Position numbers and translations under genes: made by a program. From contig OY843585.1 of NCBI GenBank assembly GCA_963692945.1, positions 930,001 through 962,000 on the forward strand: a stretch of DNA of 32,000 nucleotides, read 5' to 3'. Position 1 is the stretch's first letter. Every line of letters starts with the position of its first letter. This document shows positions 7,848 to 31,797 of this stretch, one piece after another. Under the pieces are notes generated by a model. That model was not told the DNA's origin and ran no database searches. It worked only from the letters and a program-made list of their open reading frames with translations. This DNA comes from Bdellovibrionales bacterium (GTDB taxonomy: Bacteria; Bdellovibrionota; Bdellovibrionia; Bdellovibrionales; UBA1609).

Positions 7848-8962
7848 TTATTGGTGTTCCAAAAGAAATTAAAAACTCAGAATATAGAGTGGGTTTAACA
7901 GAGACTAATGTTGGTTCTCTTGTGGAAAAAGGTCATAAAGTTTTAATTCAAAAAGGGGCTGGAGAAGGTTGTCAAATTTTTGATGAAGCTTATAAGAAAG
8001 TAGGAGCTCATTTAGTTGATACTCTTTCTGAAGTTTATAAAAATTCAGATATGATAGTGAAAGTTAAAGAACCTCTTGTAGAAGAGTATGATCTTTTTAA
8101 AGAGAATCAAATCTTATTTACTTTTTTGCATTTGGCAGCTGAATCTAAACTCACAGATGTTTTATGTTCTAAAAAAGTTAAAGCTGTTGCTTATGAAACT
8201 ATAGAAAATGAAGATGGAGAACTGCCTCTTTTGAAACCTATGAGTCAAGTTGCAGGAAGAGTTGGTCTTCAAAATGGAATTTATTATCTTCAAAAACACA
8301 ATGGAGGCAAGGGGGTTTTAGCAGGAGGTATTTCTGGTGTAAAACCGGCTCATATTGTTATTTTAGGAGGAGGAATGGCTGGAATTCATGCGGCTATGAT
8401 GGCTGTGGGATTGGAAGCTAAAGTGACCATTTTAGATATTAGTGAAGATAAGTTAAAGTCTTTAGATCAGTTTTTTGGAGGAAAAGTTAGTATGTTGTTA
8501 TCCAATAAAGAGTCTCTTTCTTCTATTGTAAAAGAAGCAGATCTGTTGATTGGATCGGTTTTGCTTAAGGGTGAAAAGGCTCCAAAATTAGTGACAGAAA
8601 AAATGATTCAAACCATGTCAAAAGATAGTGTTGTCGTTGATATATCTATAGATCAAGGAGGTTGTATAGAAACAGCTCGCCCCACATCTCATGAAAAACC
8701 AACTTATAAAGTTCATGATGTGATTCACTATTGTGTTCCTAATATACCAAGTTCTGTATCTAGAACTTCAACTTATGCTTTAACAAATGTGAGTTATCCT
8801 TATGTGTTAGAGATTGCTGAACAAAATTTGGAAGTTGCTATTAAAAATAATTTGGGACTGAGTAAGGGGTTAAATACTTATGGGGGGCATGTGACTTATC
8901 TTCCTGTTTCTAAAGCTCTTAATAAGGAATACAAATCTTTTCAAGATGTAGGTTTTCTCTAG
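7844..8962 (+). CDS. ald: Alanine dehydrogenase
   Basis: MIIGVPKEIKNSEYRVGLT N-terminus and NAD-binding VILGGGMAGIHAA. The TTG start at 7844 overlaps the ruvB TGA (TTGA), suggesting translational coupling. The last 15 nt (8948-8962) are identical to the repeat unit at 11111-11125. Confidence 0.9.
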   Translation: MIIGVPKEIKNSEYRVGLTETNVGSLVEKGHKVLIQKGAGEGCQIFDEAYKKVGAHLVDTLSEVYKNSDMIVKVKEPLVEEYDLFKENQILFTFLHLAAESKLTDVLCSKKVKAVAYETIENEDGELPLLKPMSQVAGRVGLQNGIYYLQKHNGGKGVLAGGISGVKPAHIVILGGGMAGIHAAMMAVGLEAKVTILDISEDKLKSLDQFFGGKVSMLLSNKESLSSIVKEADLLIGSVLLKGEKAPKLVTEKMIQTMSKDSVVVDISIDQGGCIETARPTSHEKPTYKVHDVIHYCVPNIPSSVSRTSTYALTNVSYPYVLEIAEQNLEVAIKNNLGLSKGLNTYGGHVTYLPVSKALNKEYKSFQDVGFL

Positions 8963-9086
8963 GAATACCCTCATGCAAAAACCAGTAGGTTTTCTCTATG
9001 AAACTCTACTTATTTTCTGAACTTGAAGAGTGTCCCTTTTACGATGAAAGGTCAGAAAATAAGTAGAGTAACACTAGAGTTTTGTA
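8963..9086. repeat. Composite structured repeat, copy R1 (left part truncated)
   Basis: It contains a 25-nt unit at 8975-8999 (gcaaaaaccagtaggttttctctat), hairpin A at 9003-9069 and the terminal motif actagagttttgta at 9073-9086. It is near-identical to 11184-11300. Confidence 0.9.
9003..9069. repeat. Hairpin A, copy 1: perfect 18-bp stem and 31-nt loop
   Basis: actctacttattttctga (9003-9020) is the exact reverse complement of tcagaaaataagtagagt (9052-9069). The loop is acttgaagagtgtcccttttacgatgaaagg. Confidence 0.9.
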
Positions 9087-9140
9087 AAACAGGCATGGTT
9101 TTTGCATATAGTTTATGGTAAACTAAAAAAAGGAGAAATA

Positions 9141-9740
9141 ATGAGTAATAAATCTACTGTTTTAGAGGCTAAAGCTTATTTTGCAGAAATTTGGAAACTT
9201 TTCAACGAGCAAAAAGAGTACGATAAACAAACGGCAATGGAGCGAAAAGAATATGAAAAAAAAGCAGCAGAAGATATTAAAGAGCTCCGAGCTAGCCTAA
9301 AAGCGACTGACCTAAAATTCAATGGTCACTGGGGTAAGTTGATGGAGACTTTAGTTGAAGGAGATTTAGTGAAACTTCTAAAACAAAAAGGTATCCAAGT
9401 TGATCGGACGGCAACAAATATACTGAAAAAACACGGGGAACAACAATTTGAATTTGATATTTTAGCTTTCAATGGGGAAGAGATCGTTGTTGTAGAAGTG
9501 AAAACAACTTTAGATATTAAAGAGTTGAATTATTTCATTAAGAAATTAAATAGAGTTACGGATTTTATGCCAGAATTTAAAGGTAAAAAAGTTTATGGAG
9601 CCGTTGCGTATTTAAAAGCCAACCAATCTTCTGACAAAAGAGCTGAGAAAGAGGGTTTGTTTGTGATAAGAGCGACAGGAAGCAGTTCCAGTATTGTTAA
9701 TAAGCAGAGTTTTAAACCCAAAGCTTTTACAAAACTCTAG
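9141..9740 (+). CDS. PD-(D/E)XK (restriction-endonuclease fold) nuclease-like protein with N-terminal charged coiled-coil
   Basis: FEFDILAFNGEEIVVVEVKTTL fits the D...(D/E)xK signature, and the N-terminal 60 aa are K/E-rich and helical. I place the start at ATG 9141, preceded by AGGAG at 9131-9135, whereas the track begins at 9102. The last four codons plus stop (acaaaactctag) lie in the 14-nt repeat motif. Confidence 0.6.
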   Translation: MSNKSTVLEAKAYFAEIWKLFNEQKEYDKQTAMERKEYEKKAAEDIKELRASLKATDLKFNGHWGKLMETLVEGDLVKLLKQKGIQVDRTATNILKKHGEQQFEFDILAFNGEEIVVVEVKTTLDIKELNYFIKKLNRVTDFMPEFKGKKVYGAVAYLKANQSSDKRAEKEGLFVIRATGSSSSIVNKQSFKPKAFTKL

Positions 9741-9903
9741 TTCTTTCCTTTTTATTTTCACGAGATTTGAAGAGCAAAGCCCTTCATGCAAAAACCAGTA
9801 GGTTTTCTCTATGTTAAAACTTTCATTTTCACGAGATTTGAAGAACATCTCTCCTGTGATGAAAAGCTCGTGAAAATGAAAGTTCACACACTAGAGTTTT
9901 GTA
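9728..9903. repeat. Composite structured repeat, copy R2, bounded by perfect 14-bp inverted repeats
   Basis: tacaaaactctagt (9728-9741) is the reverse complement of actagagttttgta (9890-9903). Inside are a half-unit at 9752-9787, a 25-nt unit at 9788-9812 and hairpin B at 9818-9884. Segment 9752-9813 matches 11153-11214 at 61 of 62 positions. Confidence 0.9.
9818..9884. repeat. Hairpin B: perfect 18-bp stem and 31-nt loop, same geometry as hairpin A with a different stem sequence
   Basis: aactttcattttcacgag (9818-9835) is the exact reverse complement of ctcgtgaaaatgaaagtt (9867-9884). The loop atttgaagaacatctctcctgtgatgaaaag shares TTGAAGA and GATGAAA(A)G with the hairpin A loop. Confidence 0.9.
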
Positions 9904-9989
9904 GATGTCTTCTCAAGACGATTTACTCTTTTGAGAAGTGAATTTAGATTCTCTTTGAGAGATTCATTTTCTTTTTGAGGGTTCACGAG
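9891..9989 (-). pseudogene. Relic of the 3' end of a tail-fibre-like gene (about 30 codons plus stop)
   Basis: 9891-9976 aligns by eye without gaps to 11288-11373, with 7 mismatches in about 86 nt. It translates as ...ENESLKENLNSLLKRVNRLEKTSTKL*, against ...KENTSLKENLNSLIKRVNRLEKTTTKL* for the intact gene. An in-frame upstream stop lies at 9990-9992. Confidence 0.8.
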
Positions 9990-10173
9990 TTAAAAAGGTT
10001 TTACCTATGTGACTTCTTAATTAGCGAAACAGAGAGAGGATTCATTCTCACGCAAACAAAAAAATTTTATATTCCTGTCTATTCTATGTACAAAAAAACC
10101 CGACTAAGATAAAGGAAAAAAGACTTTCTTGGTTTATACAAGATCATCCAGTTACTTATAAAAACAGAGAATA

Positions 10174-10845
10174 TCAAGACCAGTTTTTTGGCTTGAACAT
10201 TCCATTGACTCTATTGGGAAATTGACTTTCTTTTAAATGACTTTCTTTCAACCTTAAGGTCTTATTTGATATTCTTCTTAAATCCATATGAGTTTCCACC
10301 TTAAAGGGTGTAATGACTACTATTTTCTTCCTTAATTTGTTCCGAGCAAATCTAAGAGGCAATTTTAAATCTGTATCATTTGACAATAATACTACATAGT
10401 CCACGTTTCCCTTACAACAATCATATATAATATGTGTCGCTATATTAACATCTGTTTCTTTTTCTTCGTGCTTAGGAAATTGAAAGATACTTCCTCTTAA
10501 AAGGCTCTTTATTTGCTCTAAGTTTTTAGAGTTCCCTTGCAAAATAGACAATCTTTCTATTTGGTTATTTTTTATTTTTATATGTCTTTTTTTGAACTTA
10601 CCATAAACTATTTCAACTTTTTGAAGAGTCCTTAGAGCAGTTAACCATACATTCTGGTTTTGTGTTGAGTTTGAAAATGGAGTTTTAGCTGTAAAATATT
10701 TTATTTTAATTATCTTATTTAAAGAAGGATCTAAAACAAGGCTAATAAGTTTCTCTATGTTAAGCCATTTATAGGGAGTATCTTTTAATGAATAATAGAG
10801 GTTAAATCCGTCAATATAAACAATGGTATTAGAAGTAGGGAGCAT
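10174..10845 (-). CDS. NYN-domain (PIN-like/LabA-like) predicted ribonuclease
   Basis: IVYIDGFNLYY N-terminal acidic motif, EKETDVNIATHIIYD, and DYVVLLSNDTDLKLPLRFAR followed by KKIVVITP. This order of conserved Asp motifs is typical of NYN domains. Confidence 0.75.
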   Translation of the reverse strand: MLPTSNTIVYIDGFNLYYSLKDTPYKWLNIEKLISLVLDPSLNKIIKIKYFTAKTPFSNSTQNQNVWLTALRTLQKVEIVYGKFKKRHIKIKNNQIERLSILQGNSKNLEQIKSLLRGSIFQFPKHEEKETDVNIATHIIYDCCKGNVDYVVLLSNDTDLKLPLRFARNKLRKKIVVITPFKVETHMDLRRISNKTLRLKESHLKESQFPNRVNGMFKPKNWS

Positions 10846-10859
10846 AAATATTTGGCCAT

Positions 10860-10889
10860 AAAAAAACGAAGGCGATCTTTCAATCGCCT
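10860..10889 (-). terminator. Rho-independent terminator-like hairpin ending 15 nt upstream of the NYN start codon
   Basis: The minus strand reads AGGCGAT-TGAAAG-ATCGCCT (7-bp GC-rich stem, 10870-10876 and 10883-10889), then TCG and T7 (A7 at 10860-10866 on +). Confidence 0.6.
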
Positions 10890-10928
10890 CGCACCTCCCA
10901 GCCGTAGCCGAAGAGGGAAATCACTACT

Positions 10929-10956
10929 AGTATATATACACTAGATAAAAAGTCAA
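10929..10956 (-). promoter_or_regulatory. Sigma70-like promoter TTGACT-N16-TATACT
   Basis: On the minus strand the -35 TTGACT is at 10956-10951 and the -10 TATACT at 10934-10929. It would start a transcript of about 60 nt that runs into the terminator at 10860-10889. Confidence 0.45.
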
Positions 10957-11014
10957 ATCTTATCTTCTTATCTTAATTTTAACATATTTACACTATATGT
11001 TATCGGACTATTAT

Positions 11015-11125
11015 CTGAAAAACTTAAGTTTTTCTCTAGAAATACCTTTTGCGAAAACCAGTAAGATTTCTCTAAGCGAAAACCAGTAAGATTTCTCTAA
11101 GCGAAAACCAGTAGGTTTTCTCTAG
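11015..11125. repeat. Tandem array of the 25-nt mini-hairpin unit (one diverged plus three head-to-tail copies)
   Basis: Unit at 11015-11039 is ctgaaaaacttaagtttttctctag. Units at 11051-11075 and 11076-11100 are both gcgaaaaccagtaagatttctctaa. Unit at 11101-11125 is gcgaaaaccagtaggttttctctag. There are no spacers between the last three. Confidence 0.9.
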
Positions 11126-11150
11126 TTCAAACATAAGTTTATTAAGTAAC

Positions 11151-11300
11151 TCTTATTTTCACGAGATTTGAAGAGCAAAGCCCTTCATGCGAAAACCAGT
11201 AGGTTTTCTCTATGAAACTCTACTTATTTTCTGAACTTGAAGAGTGTCCCTCTTACGATGAAAGGTCAGAAAATAAGTAGAGTAACACTAGAGTTTTGTA
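11151..11300. repeat. Composite structured repeat, copy R3 (full length)
   Basis: It contains a half-unit at 11153-11188, a 25-nt unit at 11189-11213, hairpin A at 11217-11283 and the terminal motif actagagttttgta at 11287-11300, which holds the fibre gene stop. Confidence 0.9.
11217..11283. repeat. Hairpin A, copy 2: perfect 18-bp stem and 31-nt loop
   Basis: 11217-11234 is the reverse complement of 11266-11283. The loop differs from copy 1 at one base (ctctt versus ctttt), a position that could pair with aagag within the loop (G-C versus G-U). Confidence 0.9.
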
Positions 11301-13435
11301 GTTGTCTTCTCAAGACGATTCACTCTTTTGATAAGTGAGTTTAGATTCTCTTTAAGAGATGTATTTTCTTTTTTCAAAGAAGTGAGTTCTCTTTCTAGTT
11401 TTTTATTTGTAGATGCTAATTTCTTCTTTGTTTGAAGTTGTGTCTCTTTTAGTTTTTTTGTCATTTCTTTTGTGGTGGTTTTTACATCATCTGAAGTTTG
11501 TTTAAGTTTAATTTTTGTTTCTTCAATTTGACTTTGGCTCGCTCCCAACTCTTTTTTAACAGTTAAAAACTCTGTTTGAAAAGTCTTTTTTAAATCAGCT
11601 AGAGATTTTGTAAGAGCCGATACAGACTCTTTAAGAAAGTTTAGAGTTTTTGTTGTGGAGCCATAAAATTCTTTAAAGGCTTTTATGATAACAGGAATAA
11701 GCCCTTGATAGTTTAAACTTAAAGTCTTTTTTGGATCTGAACCTTCCAACACTAACTCTGGGTATTCTTTTTGAACCTCTTGAGCAATAAGACCTATCTG
11801 TTTTGTTTGAACTTTATGTTTGTCTTTCCAGTAAAAAGTTTTTGGGTTTAATTTTAAAAGAGAATGGCTTTGATTTTTTAAATCCTTTATCTTGGTTTTG
11901 AGTCTTCGGTCTGATGATGTTTCTGGGAAAAGCCATGCAGGAAGAGTAGGAGAAGACACATTGGTATCCAAGGTGAAATAATCTGAAATACGTCCCGGAG
12001 TAGTAGTAGATTTTTTAACCTTTAATTCGCCATCTATAATCAAATCCCCATGTATTGTAACTTGTCTTTCATCAACTACAACAGGGGCAGTTTCATACCT
12101 TAAATTCCCTGTGATTAAACCACCGATATCTAGTTTGTAACTTTCATCTTCACAAGCAACAGATTTACAGCCAGATCTATGTCCAATAGCAATATTATTA
12201 CTTCCAGTTTTGTTTAAAAGACCTGCAAAGGATCCAAAAAAATTGTTCTCTCTTCCAGTTGTGTTTCCAGTACCTGCAAAGAATCCAAAAAAACTATTCT
12301 TATGTCCACCTATGTTTTGACCACCTGCAAAGGATCCAAAAAAATTGTTCTCTTTTCCAGTTGTGTTTCCAATACCTGCACCACTTCCAAAAAAACTGTT
12401 ACTATCTCCAGTTTCGTTTGTATAACCTGCTTCATATCCAAAAAAACTGTTATTATTTCCAGTTATGTTTGAATAACCTGCACCACTTCCAAAGAAATTG
12501 TTATACTTTCCACCTATGTTTGCACGACCCGCTTGATTTCCAAAAAAACTGTTATTATGTCCACTTGTGTTTGCACGACCTGCAAGGTATCCAAAAAAAC
12601 TGTTAACACCTCCAGTTGTGTTTGAAAGACCTGCACTCCTTCCAAAAAAACTGTTCCACTTTCCACCTGTGTTTTCATGACCTGCTTTATAACCCACAAA
12701 AGTATTCCCTTCACCTGTGTTTGTTGAATTAAGTCTTTTTGTTGATTTCCCTGCTCCAAAACCAAAAGCCGTGTGCTTATCTACACTTACCTCTGTTGTA
12801 TCTCCACAACCAACTAAGCTTAAACTTAATTCACCTGTAGAATCATCTGTCACTTTATAACAATTTGGATTCCCACTCCCACCAACAACTGCATCACCAC
12901 AAACATTTTTAGCATAAGTCAAAGTGGTTGTATCAGCTATGATTAACTCTACCACTTTTTCCACCTCTGTTTTTCTGGTTGCATGAGTAGTAGCTGGTAA
13001 AGCATCTATCTGTGTCTGTATATTTGTAGGAAGACCAGACTTCCCATCTGCTTTATCAATAATTTCTTCATAAAAAAGAGAACAGCATTGAGTGGCTTTT
13101 ACTGGAATATTAAAATCCCATTCTGAACTCAAAGTTCCTGTCCCTCCTGTTAAGTGAATGATTTTAGGTCTTTTTTCATCTGGCACAGCTGTTTTACAAT
13201 CTATTAAATGTTTATCGGTTGCTAAATTAGGATCACACTTCCTAAAATTAAATGTCCAACCTGTTGGTTTATTTGGAGTATAACTATTTAATATGCTTAA
13301 ACATTTTTTACCAGCCTCTGTGTTTGTTAAATTATCTTCACTTGCAAACCTGTCTATAATGGATTGAGATTGAATCACTTTCCAAAGTTCAGTATTAGAA
13401 TCTTTTATTTTTTTTTGTGAAGTGGATTGTTGCAT
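11288..13435 (-). CDS. Phage-tail-fibre-like surface protein. It has a Cys-containing N-terminal region, ten 17-aa NSFFGxxAGxxNTxGxx repeats, an S74-type intramolecular chaperone (autoprocessing) domain and a coiled-coil tail.
   Basis: The repeats are read directly from the translation. SSDRRLKTKIKDL...QIGLIAQEVQKEYPELV...LNYQGLIPVIIKAFKE matches the SDxRxK...GxIAQEV..P..V pattern of the tail-spike/endosialidase C-terminal chaperone domain. The annotated Met is probably not the true start (see the 13436-13671 segment). Confidence 0.8.
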   Translation of the reverse strand: MQQSTSQKKIKDSNTELWKVIQSQSIIDRFASEDNLTNTEAGKKCLSILNSYTPNKPTGWTFNFRKCDPNLATDKHLIDCKTAVPDEKRPKIIHLTGGTGTLSSEWDFNIPVKATQCCSLFYEEIIDKADGKSGLPTNIQTQIDALPATTHATRKTEVEKVVELIIADTTTLTYAKNVCGDAVVGGSGNPNCYKVTDDSTGELSLSLVGCGDTTEVSVDKHTAFGFGAGKSTKRLNSTNTGEGNTFVGYKAGHENTGGKWNSFFGRSAGLSNTTGGVNSFFGYLAGRANTSGHNNSFFGNQAGRANIGGKYNNFFGSGAGYSNITGNNNSFFGYEAGYTNETGDSNSFFGSGAGIGNTTGKENNFFGSFAGGQNIGGHKNSFFGFFAGTGNTTGRENNFFGSFAGLLNKTGSNNIAIGHRSGCKSVACEDESYKLDIGGLITGNLRYETAPVVVDERQVTIHGDLIIDGELKVKKSTTTPGRISDYFTLDTNVSSPTLPAWLFPETSSDRRLKTKIKDLKNQSHSLLKLNPKTFYWKDKHKVQTKQIGLIAQEVQKEYPELVLEGSDPKKTLSLNYQGLIPVIIKAFKEFYGSTTKTLNFLKESVSALTKSLADLKKTFQTEFLTVKKELGASQSQIEETKIKLKQTSDDVKTTTKEMTKKLKETQLQTKKKLASTNKKLERELTSLKKENTSLKENLNSLIKRVNRLEKTTTKL
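12170..12706 (-). repeat. In-frame 51-bp (17-codon) tandem repeats within the fibre gene
   Basis: ccaaaaaaa(c/t)tgtt...cctgca units recur every 51 nt on the + strand. They generate the shadow ORFs 12259-12606 (+) and 12514-12765 (-). Confidence 0.85.
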
Positions 13436-13671
13436 AATAGATGTCCCAACTCCTAAAATAACGATAGCCCCTATTGCCGATGCAATAACAACACTAATAA
13501 TAGCAGAACCTTTTTGATTTAAATAAGAAGGGTTGTTGTTTTTTAAAAGAAAGGAAAGTTTGTGAAATAAAAGAAATTTACATTTTAAAAGTAAATGGGG
13601 GGGGGGGGTAGAAAGATTTTTTTAAAATAAAAAAGAGATTTTCTAGCTCTAGATTTAAAAGCTTTTTTCAT
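13436..13671 (-). other. Out-of-frame 5' segment of the fibre gene: start codon, basic N-terminus, poly-Pro and transmembrane helix
   Basis: ATG 13671 gives MKKAFKSRARKSLFYFKKIFLPPPPIYF, with a stop at 13585. In the fibre frame, 13596-13436 is open and encodes HLLLKCKFLLFHKLSFLLKNNNPSYLNQKGSAIISVVIASAIGAIVILGVGTSI directly before Met 13435. Confidence 0.7.
13597..13608 (-). repeat. G12 (C12 on the coding strand) homopolymer, a candidate slipped-strand phase-variation tract
   Basis: Counted directly: gggg at 13597-13600 plus gggggggg at 13601-13608. Confidence 0.95.
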
Positions 13672-13677
13672 AGATAA

Positions 13678-13706
13678 ATTATGAAGAAGGTTTTAAAAAA
13701 TATCAA
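13678..13706 (-). promoter_or_regulatory. Candidate promoter TTGATA-N17-CATAAT ending 6 nt before ATG 13671 (possible leaderless transcript)
   Basis: On the minus strand the -35 is at 13706-13701 and the -10 at 13683-13678. No Shine-Dalgarno lies between the -10 and the ATG. Confidence 0.35.
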
Positions 13707-13708
13707 CC

Positions 13709-13803
13709 CTAATTTTTCTAGAAGAAAGTAGGGCAAGTAAAGAAAAATCAGCCTATCTAATTTTTCTAGAAGAAAGTAGGGCAAGTAAAGAAAAATCAGC
13801 CTA
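13709..13803. repeat. Perfect 47-nt direct duplication with a 48-nt period
   Basis: ctaatttttctagaagaaagtagggcaagtaaagaaaaatcagccta occurs at 13709-13755 and again at 13757-13803, between the E1-beta stop and the fibre promoter. Confidence 0.95.
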
Positions 13804-13856
13804 AAACCTATAGTTTAGTCACTCACCTAGCAAATTAAGTCAAAATCTAAAAAACA

Positions 13857-21010: not shown

Positions 21011-21856
21011 CTATTTATAATTGGAAATTAAATTTTTTGGACCACTTTCAAATAAAACCTCTAAACGATTATTTTTAGAAGATAAAATAAAACCCCAGCC
21101 AAAAGTCTTATGTTGGAGGCCGCTATGCGTCTCAAAGCTTTTTTCCATACTGTATGAAAAAGTTTTTTGATTTTTATATTCTTGATACAGAGTTTCCCAA
21201 TTTACATTTCCAAGATTAGGAAGATGTACTTTTGTTGAAATGGTTTTTTTAGCGAAATCTTTTTTAGGAGGCTTTGTTGCTTTAGCAGTTACTTTATTTG
21301 ATTTTTTAGGGAGTGTCGTTGTCTTAGCAGTTGATTTAGCAGTTACTTTATTTGATTTTTTAGGGAGTGTTGTTGCTTTAGCAGTTACTTTATTTGATTT
21401 TTTAGGGAGTGTTGTTGCTTTAGCAGTTACTTTATTTGACTTTTTAGGGAGTGTCGTTGTCTTAGCAGTTGCTTTAGCAGTTACTTTATTTGATTTTTTA
21501 GGGAGTGTTGTTGTCTTAGCAGTTGCTTTAGCAGTTACTTTATTTGATTTTTTAGGGAGTGTCGTTGTCTTAGCAGTTGATTTAGTGGTGAGTTTATTTG
21601 ATTTTTTAGGAGGTTTTGTTGTTTTAGCAGTTGCTTTAGCAGTGGTTTTCTTTGATTTTTTAGGAGGCATTGTTGCTTTAGCAGTTGATTTAGCAGTTAC
21701 TTTCTTTGATTTTTTAGGAGGTTTTGTTGATTTAGCAGTTACTTTAGCAGTGGATTTCTTTGACTTTTTAAGAGGCTTTGTTGTTTTAGTAGATCTGAGT
21801 TTTTTATTGCTCTGATTCTTTTTTACTTTTTTAGTTGTTTTTTGCTTTGTAGTCAT
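21011..21856 (-). CDS. Histone-H1-like Lys/Ala/Thr/Pro repeat protein with a C-terminal Tudor-like domain resembling the UvrD/PcrA C-terminus
   Basis: The N-terminal ~195 aa are (T)AKTTTLPKKSNKVTAKA-type repeats. The C-terminal GLQHKTFGWGFILSSKNNRLEVLFESGPKNLISNY fits G..(V).H..FG.G.(V)......(L).V.F..G.K.L...Y. It lies 9 nt upstream of infA. Confidence 0.7.
   Translation of the reverse strand: MTTKQKTTKKVKKNQSNKKLRSTKTTKPLKKSKKSTAKVTAKSTKPPKKSKKVTAKSTAKATMPPKKSKKTTAKATAKTTKPPKKSNKLTTKSTAKTTTLPKKSNKVTAKATAKTTTLPKKSNKVTAKATAKTTTLPKKSNKVTAKATTLPKKSNKVTAKATTLPKKSNKVTAKSTAKTTTLPKKSNKVTAKATKPPKKDFAKKTISTKVHLPNLGNVNWETLYQEYKNQKTFSYSMEKSFETHSGLQHKTFGWGFILSSKNNRLEVLFESGPKNLISNYK
21271..21800 (-). repeat. 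In-frame tandem repeats (54-bp and 42-bp units) encoding the Lys-rich repeats
   Basis: Near-identical agcagttactttatttgattttttagggagtgt(c/t)gttg... units are visible on the + strand. They create the antisense shadow ORF 21240-21815. Confidence 0.85.
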
Positions 21857-30915: not shown

Positions 30916-31797
30916 ATGTTATTAGATCAACAAGATGATTTTTTTAGAGATCTTTTATTTAACAAACAATATTCTGAAAACACTATCGCTGCTTATAGGA
31001 GAGACTTATTTATTTATCAAGAATTTTGTAAAACAAAAAAGCAAATTTCAGAATTTTATCAATATCTTACAAAAAAAAATTTAAGTCCAAAATCTCAAGT
31101 TCGTATTATTAGTTGTCTAAGAATGTATTTTAAATATTTACAAAGTTGTGGAATATCTACACCTGATATAAATATTTTAAAATTTCCTAAGTTAAAAAAG
31201 AAGTTACCAAAAATTATCAGTATCAAAGAATTTAAAGCTTTATTAGAGGCTTCTAGAGAGAAAGATAAAGTTTTAACCATTCGCAATCATCTTGTATTAA
31301 GTTTTTTATATGGTTTAGGTTGTAGAGTGAGTGAATTGGTTCATTTGGATTTAGAGGATTTTAATGCTACAGAATCTTGGGTGAATATAACAGGAAAAGG
31401 GAATAGACAAAGATTGTTACCTCTATCTAAAGACCTCTATGAACTTTTAAATTTTTATTTAAAAGAATCTCGTCCGTTGGTTGTTAAGACAGAAATGCAG
31501 GCTTTGCTTTTTAATAATAAAGGAAATCGTCCTTCCCGTATAGATATTTGGAGATGGCTTAAAAAATGGTCTCAACAAGCAGGTTTTGATGATGTTAAAA
31601 ATCCCCATTCTTTTCGTCATGGATGTGCTACGGGATTGTTAGAACGAGGGGCTGATTTGAGGAGTATACAAAAACTACTAGGTCATCTCAATATTCAAAC
31701 AACTCAAATTTACACTTCTGTTACTTCTAAGCATTTGAAAGAAACTGTTGATAGATGTCATCCATTCTCTCAATCTGAAACTTCAGTTGAAGATTGA
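30916..31797 (+). CDS. xerD: Tyrosine site-specific recombinase, XerD-like
   Basis: ENTIAAYRRDL at the N-terminus, GCRVSELVHL, HSFRHGCAT, and LLGHLNIQTTQIYTSV (catalytic Tyr). XerD versus XerC cannot be settled by eye. Confidence 0.7.
   Translation: MLLDQQDDFFRDLLFNKQYSENTIAAYRRDLFIYQEFCKTKKQISEFYQYLTKKNLSPKSQVRIISCLRMYFKYLQSCGISTPDINILKFPKLKKKLPKIISIKEFKALLEASREKDKVLTIRNHLVLSFLYGLGCRVSELVHLDLEDFNATESWVNITGKGNRQRLLPLSKDLYELLNFYLKESRPLVVKTEMQALLFNNKGNRPSRIDIWRWLKKWSQQAGFDDVKNPHSFRHGCATGLLERGADLRSIQKLLGHLNIQTTQIYTSVTSKHLKETVDRCHPFSQSETSVED

Follow-up and report, generated by a model that had tools for sequence, protein, structure and literature searches.

A HEC-09-type NYN RNase gene with a conserved leader RNA and a DUF8196 nuclease gene are probably chance neighbours in a small accretion islet of a Bdellovibrionales genome

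The genes considered here lie in a 32,000-nucleotide (nt) stretch of a Bdellovibrionales bacterium of the GTDB lineage UBA1609 (assembly GCA_963692945.1, contig OY843585.1, positions 930,001 to 962,000 of the forward strand), which we call the window and to which all coordinates refer unless another locus is named. Between ald and the E1-beta gene, the window holds two open reading frames (ORFs) for predicted nucleases, ORF A, encoding a DUF8196 protein, and ORF B, encoding an NYN RNase of the HEC-09 family, together with structured repeats and a fibre-like gene. A first-pass annotation made from the sequence alone had proposed that the two nucleases act jointly in defence or addiction, the structured repeats supplying the RNA component. 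We find it likely instead that they became neighbours through an accident of insertion and are not partners, and we describe a new leader RNA, composed of a hairpin and an intrinsic terminator, that is kept before HEC-09-type NYN genes across phyla. The features of the locus are as follows.

8947-13855: lineage-specific islet (4.9 kb) between the convergent ald and E1-beta genes, delimited by comparison with the relatives L161 and L162
8947-8962, + strand: final four codons and stop of ald (VGFL-stop), a partial copy of the repeat core, in which GTAGGTTTTCTCTA matches the core
8968-9086, + strand: repeat unit U1, with 28-nt core (8972-8999), 22-bp hairpin of type 1 (9003-9069), and ACACTAGAGTTTTGTA end; -39.1 kcal/mol, z score -5.7
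9141-9740, + strand: ORF A, DUF8196 or Hjc-like PD-(D/E)XK nuclease with an N-terminal coiled coil, 199 residues, intact
9747-9887, + strand: repeat unit U2, with half hairpin (9747-9783), core (9785-9812), and 22-bp hairpin of type 2 (9818-9884); -38 kcal/mol, z score -4.7
9888-9976, - strand: fragment of the fibre gene 3' end, 27 codons and stop, 92% identical to 11285-11373
10174-10845, - strand: ORF B, NYN RNase of the HEC-09 family, 223 residues, intact
10859-10925, - strand: NYN leader RNA, a 67-nt unit with hairpin P1 carrying a UNCG loop, an intrinsic terminator, and a U7 tract
10929-10956, - strand: promoter-like site of the NYN unit, TTGACT, 16 nt, TATACT, with -35 and -10 elements kept in L002-L005
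11048-11125, + strand: three tandem degenerate 25-nt copies of the core
11148-11287, + strand: repeat unit U3, with half hairpin, core (11186-11213), and hairpin of type 1 (11217-11283)
11288-13435, - strand: fibre-like gene, 715 residues, with 17-residue repeats and a Peptidase_S74 chaperone domain (Pfam), part of the islet

The limits of the islet follow from comparison with L161 and L162, the closest available relatives, whose Ald proteins are 85% and 77% identical to that of the window. Both relatives have the same gene order, running through EF-P, a TPR protein, ruvC, ruvA, ruvB, and ald and, on the opposite strand, E1-beta, E1-alpha, Tsp, and topA, and their DNA similarity to the window ends at 8946-8950 and restarts at 13856. 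Because ald and the E1-beta gene are only 0 to 4 nt apart in these two genomes, the segment 8947-13855 is a lineage-specific insertion, including the fibre-like gene, which is missing between ald and E1-beta there. The Ald protein of the window ends in KSFQDVGFL, in contrast to KSFKDLSL and KSLKEFQI in the relatives; since this altered end is encoded by an incomplete copy of the core, the insertion rewrote the 3' end of a housekeeping gene. The cargo comprises ORF A, ORF B, and the 715-residue fibre-like gene, and no helicase, methylase, or ATPase gene was found within the islet. Taken as a whole, the locus would be a small accretion islet, placed exactly between convergent ald and E1-beta and holding three unrelated cargo genes.

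Much of the first-pass description of the locus is in agreement with this picture. The two nuclease ORFs are intact, lie tail to tail 433 nt apart, and are split from their neighbours by structured repeats, and the suggestion that they are horizontally exchanged accessory modules is borne out by the abutment of ald and E1-beta in the relatives and by the recurrence of the NYN unit at unrelated loci. The setting between housekeeping genes needs correction, as the fibre gene is not one of these and belongs to the same insertion.

ORF B matches the Pfam NYN family (E = 1.2e-10) and, full-length in two stretches, the PADLOC HEC-09 profile (E = 1.1e-37, 127.7 bits), and homologues from Escherichia coli plasmids score 116.7 to 157.9 bits on the same model, a range that includes the score of ORF B. 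In the passages that deal with it, HEC-09 is a lone gene with an NYN domain that sits inside Hma systems and has a MARF1-like fold (Payne et al., bioRxiv 10.1101/2024.01.29.577857). The structural model of ORF B (predicted local distance difference test score [pLDDT], 87.6) is nearest to VPA0982 and to the NYN domain of MARF1, with 2qip, 5yaa, and 6fdl as the top Foldseek matches, and residues D12, D132, D157, and D159 are invariant in the homologue alignment. A sequence search of solved structures gave no informative match for either the NYN or the DUF8196 family.

The NYN unit of the window, a 0.8-kb segment at 10173-10956 that comprises promoter, leader, and ORF, has 72 to 78% DNA identity to units at the unrelated loci L002-L005. 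DNA similarity to these loci is limited to this segment, and the NYN proteins encoded there are 62 to 70% identical to ORF B. In relatives, the unit adjoins integrases, transposases, tRNA genes, or GmrSD_C. We considered whether these relatives keep a common partner downstream of the NYN gene and rejected the idea, as the 390-residue and 405-residue neighbours are unrelated. NYN homologues were found on 411 plasmids (207 of them from Klebsiella), on 72 IMG/VR viral contigs, and in 3 phage records. Where the carrier is a small E. coli plasmid (3.5 to 4.6 kb), the NYN gene is the sole annotated gene without an evident plasmid-maintenance role; very small ColE1-like carriers of a HEC-09-type NYN gene include L163 (E. 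coli plasmid NZ_CP063347.1, 3,461 bp) and L164. ORF B would be a self-contained 0.8-kb HEC-09-type module, with its own promoter, a two-hairpin leader, and an NYN ORF whose acidic active site is intact, and it may serve mobile elements as a stand-alone RNase effector, in defence or in addiction.

A terminator-like site, unique in the region, forms the second hairpin of the NYN leader (10890-10869, followed by the U7 tract) and ends 23 nt upstream of the ORF B start codon. The same leader, with compensatory changes, stands upstream of the homologues in L002-L005 (at about 7885-7990 in L002, L003, and L005). A covariance model built on the sequences of the window and L002-L005, rebuilt from 37 matches, and run with E values up to 0.1 over about 1.5 Mb gave 88 tabulated matches, 70 of which lie directly upstream of an NYN gene on the same strand. 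These 70 end no more than about 18 nt from the estimated start codon, and some overlap the start by up to 9 nt. Among 54 distinct leader sequences, pairing extends to 93% of cells, and both sides have changed in 12 of the 15 base pairs, with far lower values in all controls. An E. coli plasmid homologue has two hairpins upstream as well, without a U tract. Neither the window nor 16 leader-bearing loci gave an Rfam 15 match to the leader at the gathering score, and a literature search found no paper on it.

Most transcripts would stop at the leader terminator, so that a potentially toxic RNase would be made only by read-through or upon disruption of the hairpin. We infer that the leader attenuates expression of the RNase, and, because the hairpin abuts the start site, it may block translation too. 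A role as RNA antitoxin or in self-regulation is possible but less likely than attenuation. In its fuller form, that alternative makes the leader a functional RNA partner of the RNase, either as a novel, non-repeat RNA antitoxin or as a target of self-regulation by the RNase, whose disruption during infection or plasmid loss frees the RNase; we regard it as unlikely. If it were true, the widespread single-gene NYN module would be a two-component RNA-protein system, and the null protection result for the HEC-09 prototype, taken up below, could be explained. The leader gives experiments a concrete point of entry to the question of what restrains a candidate defence RNase that lacks a known phenotype, and this RNase gene is spread over hundreds of plasmids, prophage-like contigs, and genomic islands.

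A ToxIN-type locus consists of a promoter, a structured RNA, a terminator, and an RNase ORF, in that order, and the NYN unit has the same layout. This likeness raises the alternative of a type III-like toxin-antitoxin system made up of the NYN gene and its leader, in which abundant terminated leader neutralises the RNase and loss of transcription frees it. The conservation of the leader along with the NYN gene across phyla and the presence of the gene on very small plasmids and prophage-like contigs are compatible with such a system. However, no tandem RNA repeats lie between the NYN promoter and the ORF, the leader being a single 67-nt unit; the 25-nt tandem repeats at 11048-11125 precede the promoter and have no counterpart in relatives. 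The NYN fold is not of the ToxN/AbiQ type, and no paper linking NYN proteins with type III toxin-antitoxin systems was found in the literature. Hairpin P1 is also variable in sequence and length, and a generic attenuator or stabiliser therefore fits better than a specific protein-binding RNA. On this balance a type III-like system is improbable, and attenuation is the function we favour for the leader.

The gene on the other side of the central repeat has a different history. ORF A is preceded by a ribosome-binding site (AAGGAG) 7 nt upstream of its ATG, and this start is backed by an alignment with its paralogues. Its protein carries PF26618 (DUF8196) in precomputed database annotation and matches Pfam Hjc (E = 2.6e-9, domain cutoff passed). 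By the tests made here it is not a Holliday junction resolvase Hjc, since only the Pfam domain level was passed and the NCBIfam equivalog NF040854 was failed (24.9 bits versus a cutoff of 70). The AlphaFold model (pLDDT, 81.5) has a single long helix at residues 4-82 followed by a PD-(D/E)XK core, and Foldseek matched it best to AF1548, VC1899, the Can2/Card1 nuclease domains, and NucS. Residues E104, D106, E119, and K121, which form an E-x-D ... E-x-K motif and had been named as catalytic at the outset, are invariant among 38 aligned homologues. ORF A is probably a metal-dependent DNA endonuclease that dimerises through the coiled coil.

Three further paralogues of ORF A, 79 to 94% identical to it, are recorded on a contig as long as the source contig (1,561,448 bp, or 1.56 Mb), making four copies in this genome, and other genomes also have several DUF8196 copies each. 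All four paralogues of the source genome (ORF A, at 9726-9740, and P0122-P0124) terminate in xKL and a stop, an extension that is lacking in DUF8196 homologues elsewhere and whose DNA matches the repeat unit at its right end and also the end of the fibre gene. In one genome (L158, 2458-10672; same region in L159), two near-identical DUF8196 copies, each carrying along about 280 nt of upstream sequence, lie on either side of a 7.3-kb islet. This islet, which separates aroA from nuo, contains PDC-S01, PDC-S32, and SLFN_AlbA_2 genes and has intergenic repeats of its own in both orientations. In L160 (8525-10660), a DUF8196 gene and an Rpn-like PDDEXK_2 gene make up a 2,055-bp unit bordered by 81-nt direct repeats, which parallels a 2,214-bp unit of the window. 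Because variable islets are where DUF8196 copies of other genomes lie, either within them or close by, the family is suggested to have a role in, or a tolerance of, recombination-prone sites. No DUF8196 gene was found on plasmids, in phage records, or on viral contigs, and no paper mentioning the family was found. As a multicopy, chromosomal-only family of variable islets, DUF8196 is a second uncharacterised target alongside the NYN leader.

Whether ORF A and ORF B belong together was addressed by tblastn with ORF A and by a profile from its 38 homologues run against six-frame ORFs of 166 fetched loci (about 1.5 Mb), about 158 of which bear an NYN gene. DUF8196 was near NYN in none of the ~158 NYN loci, matching only in the three loci that had been fetched for DUF8196 (L158-L160), and none of those three has an NYN gene nearby. 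One contig carries both families, with the NYN gene and the single located DUF8196 copy about 490 kb apart. Their host ranges differ as well, in that NYN genes occur on plasmids, on viral contigs, and in phage records, where DUF8196 was not found.

These results bear directly on the proposal that ORF A and ORF B are one two-nuclease defence or addiction system with transcripts of the flanking repeats as its RNA part. Its appeal is clear at the locus itself, where the two genes adjoin and converge, 119-nt direct repeats flank the pair, and both active sites are intact. Both families also occur in variable islets with candidate defence genes and are common in one clade of small genomes, and eight contig sizes above 1 Mb appear in both match lists. 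Against this stand the lack of adjacency in either set of loci and the separation on the one shared contig, together with the recurrence of the NYN gene alone with its own leader and the multiple copies of ORF A as opposed to a single NYN gene. The repeats contain gene-end fragments and, apart from one match that we took as chance, have no copy in the other sequences searched; the RNA that travels with the NYN gene is its 5' leader. Co-occurrence was the check that the first-pass annotation had itself named, and by that check the families are not together, so that the two-nuclease system appears largely refuted and is, in our view, very improbable. The analysis would thereby remove a false candidate two-gene system and leave an ordinary accretion islet with a HEC-09-type NYN gene and a DUF8196 paralogue.

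The repeats themselves are composite. Each unit is made up of a 28-nt core, CATGCRAAAACCAGTAGGTTTTCTCTAT, with a 6-bp hairpin inside, then a 22-bp hairpin, and then ACACTAGAGTTTTGTA, which on the opposite strand codes for TKL and a stop, the end of the fibre gene and also the end of ORF A. A 21-nt core motif has 6 copies, versus 0 expected by chance, and occurs within the 32-kb window only at the islet locus. The hairpins fold at -38 to -42 kcal/mol, with z scores of -4.7 to -6.1 relative to shuffled sequence. Repeats are found before ORF A, in the gap separating the two nuclease genes, and again ahead of the fibre gene on the far side of ORF B, always at gene 3' ends, and they generate nested direct repeats of 119 nt (97% identity; 8968-9086 and 11182-11300), 62 nt (98% identity; 9752-9813 and 11153-11214), and 89 nt (92% identity; 9888-9976 and 11285-11373). 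The last of these includes 27 codons of the fibre 3' end; the fragment at 9888-9976, which sits between ORF A and ORF B, was translated by hand as KKENSLKENLNSLLKRVNRLEKTSTKL followed by a stop and compared with the C terminus of the fibre protein.

In representative genomes, the core gave a single match, on an unrelated Planktophila contig, which we took as chance, and no repeats were found on viral contigs or beside NYN or DUF8196 genes in the fetched loci. Rfam searches with the repeats, at the gathering score and also with E values up to 5, returned only sub-threshold matches, in which the long hairpins of the repeats hit generic miRNA precursor hairpin models. A hammerhead-like reading of the GATGAAA loop motif, made by eye, was dropped for want of Rfam support. 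The units would be composite 3'-end units; they directly adjoin stop codons, and in ald they even contribute the final codons. They would have been copied together with gene-end fragments during assembly of the islet. Because fragments of neighbouring gene ends are included in them, they look like junction or terminator units, and we interpret them as terminator-like units of junction or recombination rather than as an RNA partner of the nucleases.

A more active role for the repeats is conceivable, in which site-specific recombination at the 28-nt core assembled the islet as an array of cassettes, with a recombinase encoded elsewhere and each gene individually mobilisable, in the manner of integron cassettes, Xer-dependent dif modules, or IMEX arrays. 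The geometry of the cores lends this some appeal: those at 8972, 9785, and 11186 have the same orientation and mark one cassette junction each, degenerate tandem copies lie at 11048-11125, the altered 3' end of ald consists of a partial core, and the overlap of the nested direct repeats falls at the core every time. An Xer-like tyrosine recombinase is encoded at 30916-31797; it is the only recombinase in the window and lies 17 kb past the end of the islet, so that none is within or adjoining the islet. An attC pair of R'' (RYYYAAC) and R' (GTTRRRY) at a spacing of 40 to 130 nt was not found on either strand of 8900-11400, and the genes are not co-oriented. Moreover, the core was not found on viral contigs or, apart from the Planktophila match, in other genomes, the NYN unit of other genomes lacks it, and its likeness to an 11-6-11 dif site was judged by eye only. 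A site-specific cassette array seems to us an unlikely account of the islet.

Accretion of unrelated genes, with the repeats as by-products of assembly, remains the explanation we consider likely, and several points weigh against it. Hairpin types 1 and 2 each keep 21 of 22 pairs and share loop motifs, with arm positions identical at 10 of 22 (counted from the sequences); since pairs are kept despite the divergence of the arms, selection on structure is implied, which a mere scar would not need. An association of ORF A with the repeats that is peculiar to the source genome is also conceivable. Only five NYN loci come from close relatives, and most others are homologues of 26 to 42% identity from other phyla. 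In the account of HEC-09 referred to above, as far as its passages on the prototype extend, the prototype gave no protection from the phages tested in E. coli (bioRxiv 10.1101/2024.01.29.577857), and function is therefore unproven for the whole family.

The third cargo gene and its surroundings have several further features. In the fibre-like gene, about nine to thirteen tandem repeats of 51 nt (17 residues) with an NSFFG-like motif occupy 12115-12777 and precede the Peptidase_S74 domain, and no relatives of the gene were found on the viral contigs searched. About 165 nt upstream of its start, at 13597-13608, lies a G12 run (C12 on the fibre strand) in a genome of about 31% G+C, which may serve phase variation or may have arisen as an error of assembly. 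A 47-nt unit, also upstream of the gene, is perfectly duplicated in tandem at 13709-13803, with one base between the copies. Beyond the islet, at 21011-21856 on the - strand, a 281-residue ORF without a Pfam match consists mostly of 54-nt and 42-nt tandem repeats (21222-21845).

Several known systems resemble parts of this locus. Integron cassette arrays, including sedentary chromosomal integrons with defence genes, share its repeat-gene-repeat layout, hairpin repeats, and small defence-type cargo, but the islet has no nearby integron integrase or attC consensus, its genes are in opposite orientations, and its repeats contain coding fragments. The Can2/Card1 CRISPR ancillary nucleases are among the best structural and PADLOC matches to the nuclease domain of ORF A; however, ORF A lacks a CARF sensor, its N terminus is one long helix, and the PADLOC matches cover only the nuclease part of the Can2/Card1 profiles (positions 227-309 of 361). 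Motif, core fold, and PF26618 annotation place ORF A with the DUF8196/Hjc-like nucleases, from which it differs in its 80-residue coiled coil of variable length and in its several copies per genome. With ToxIN, the NYN unit has in common a terminator between the RNA and the RNase gene, conserved here with covariation, but it has a single hairpin in place of tandem repeats, and its RNase fold is unrelated.

The closest counterpart of ORF B is HEC-09 as described in the passages of bioRxiv 10.1101/2024.01.29.577857 that concern it, where a conserved leader and terminator are not mentioned. In contrast to that gene, ORF B lies not within Hma or another multigene system but in a small islet beside ald, with ORF A, the repeats, and the fibre gene as its neighbours. 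The two share the single-gene NYN layout (about 210 to 230 residues), the model match, a MARF1-like fold, the conserved aspartates, and variable mobile contexts.

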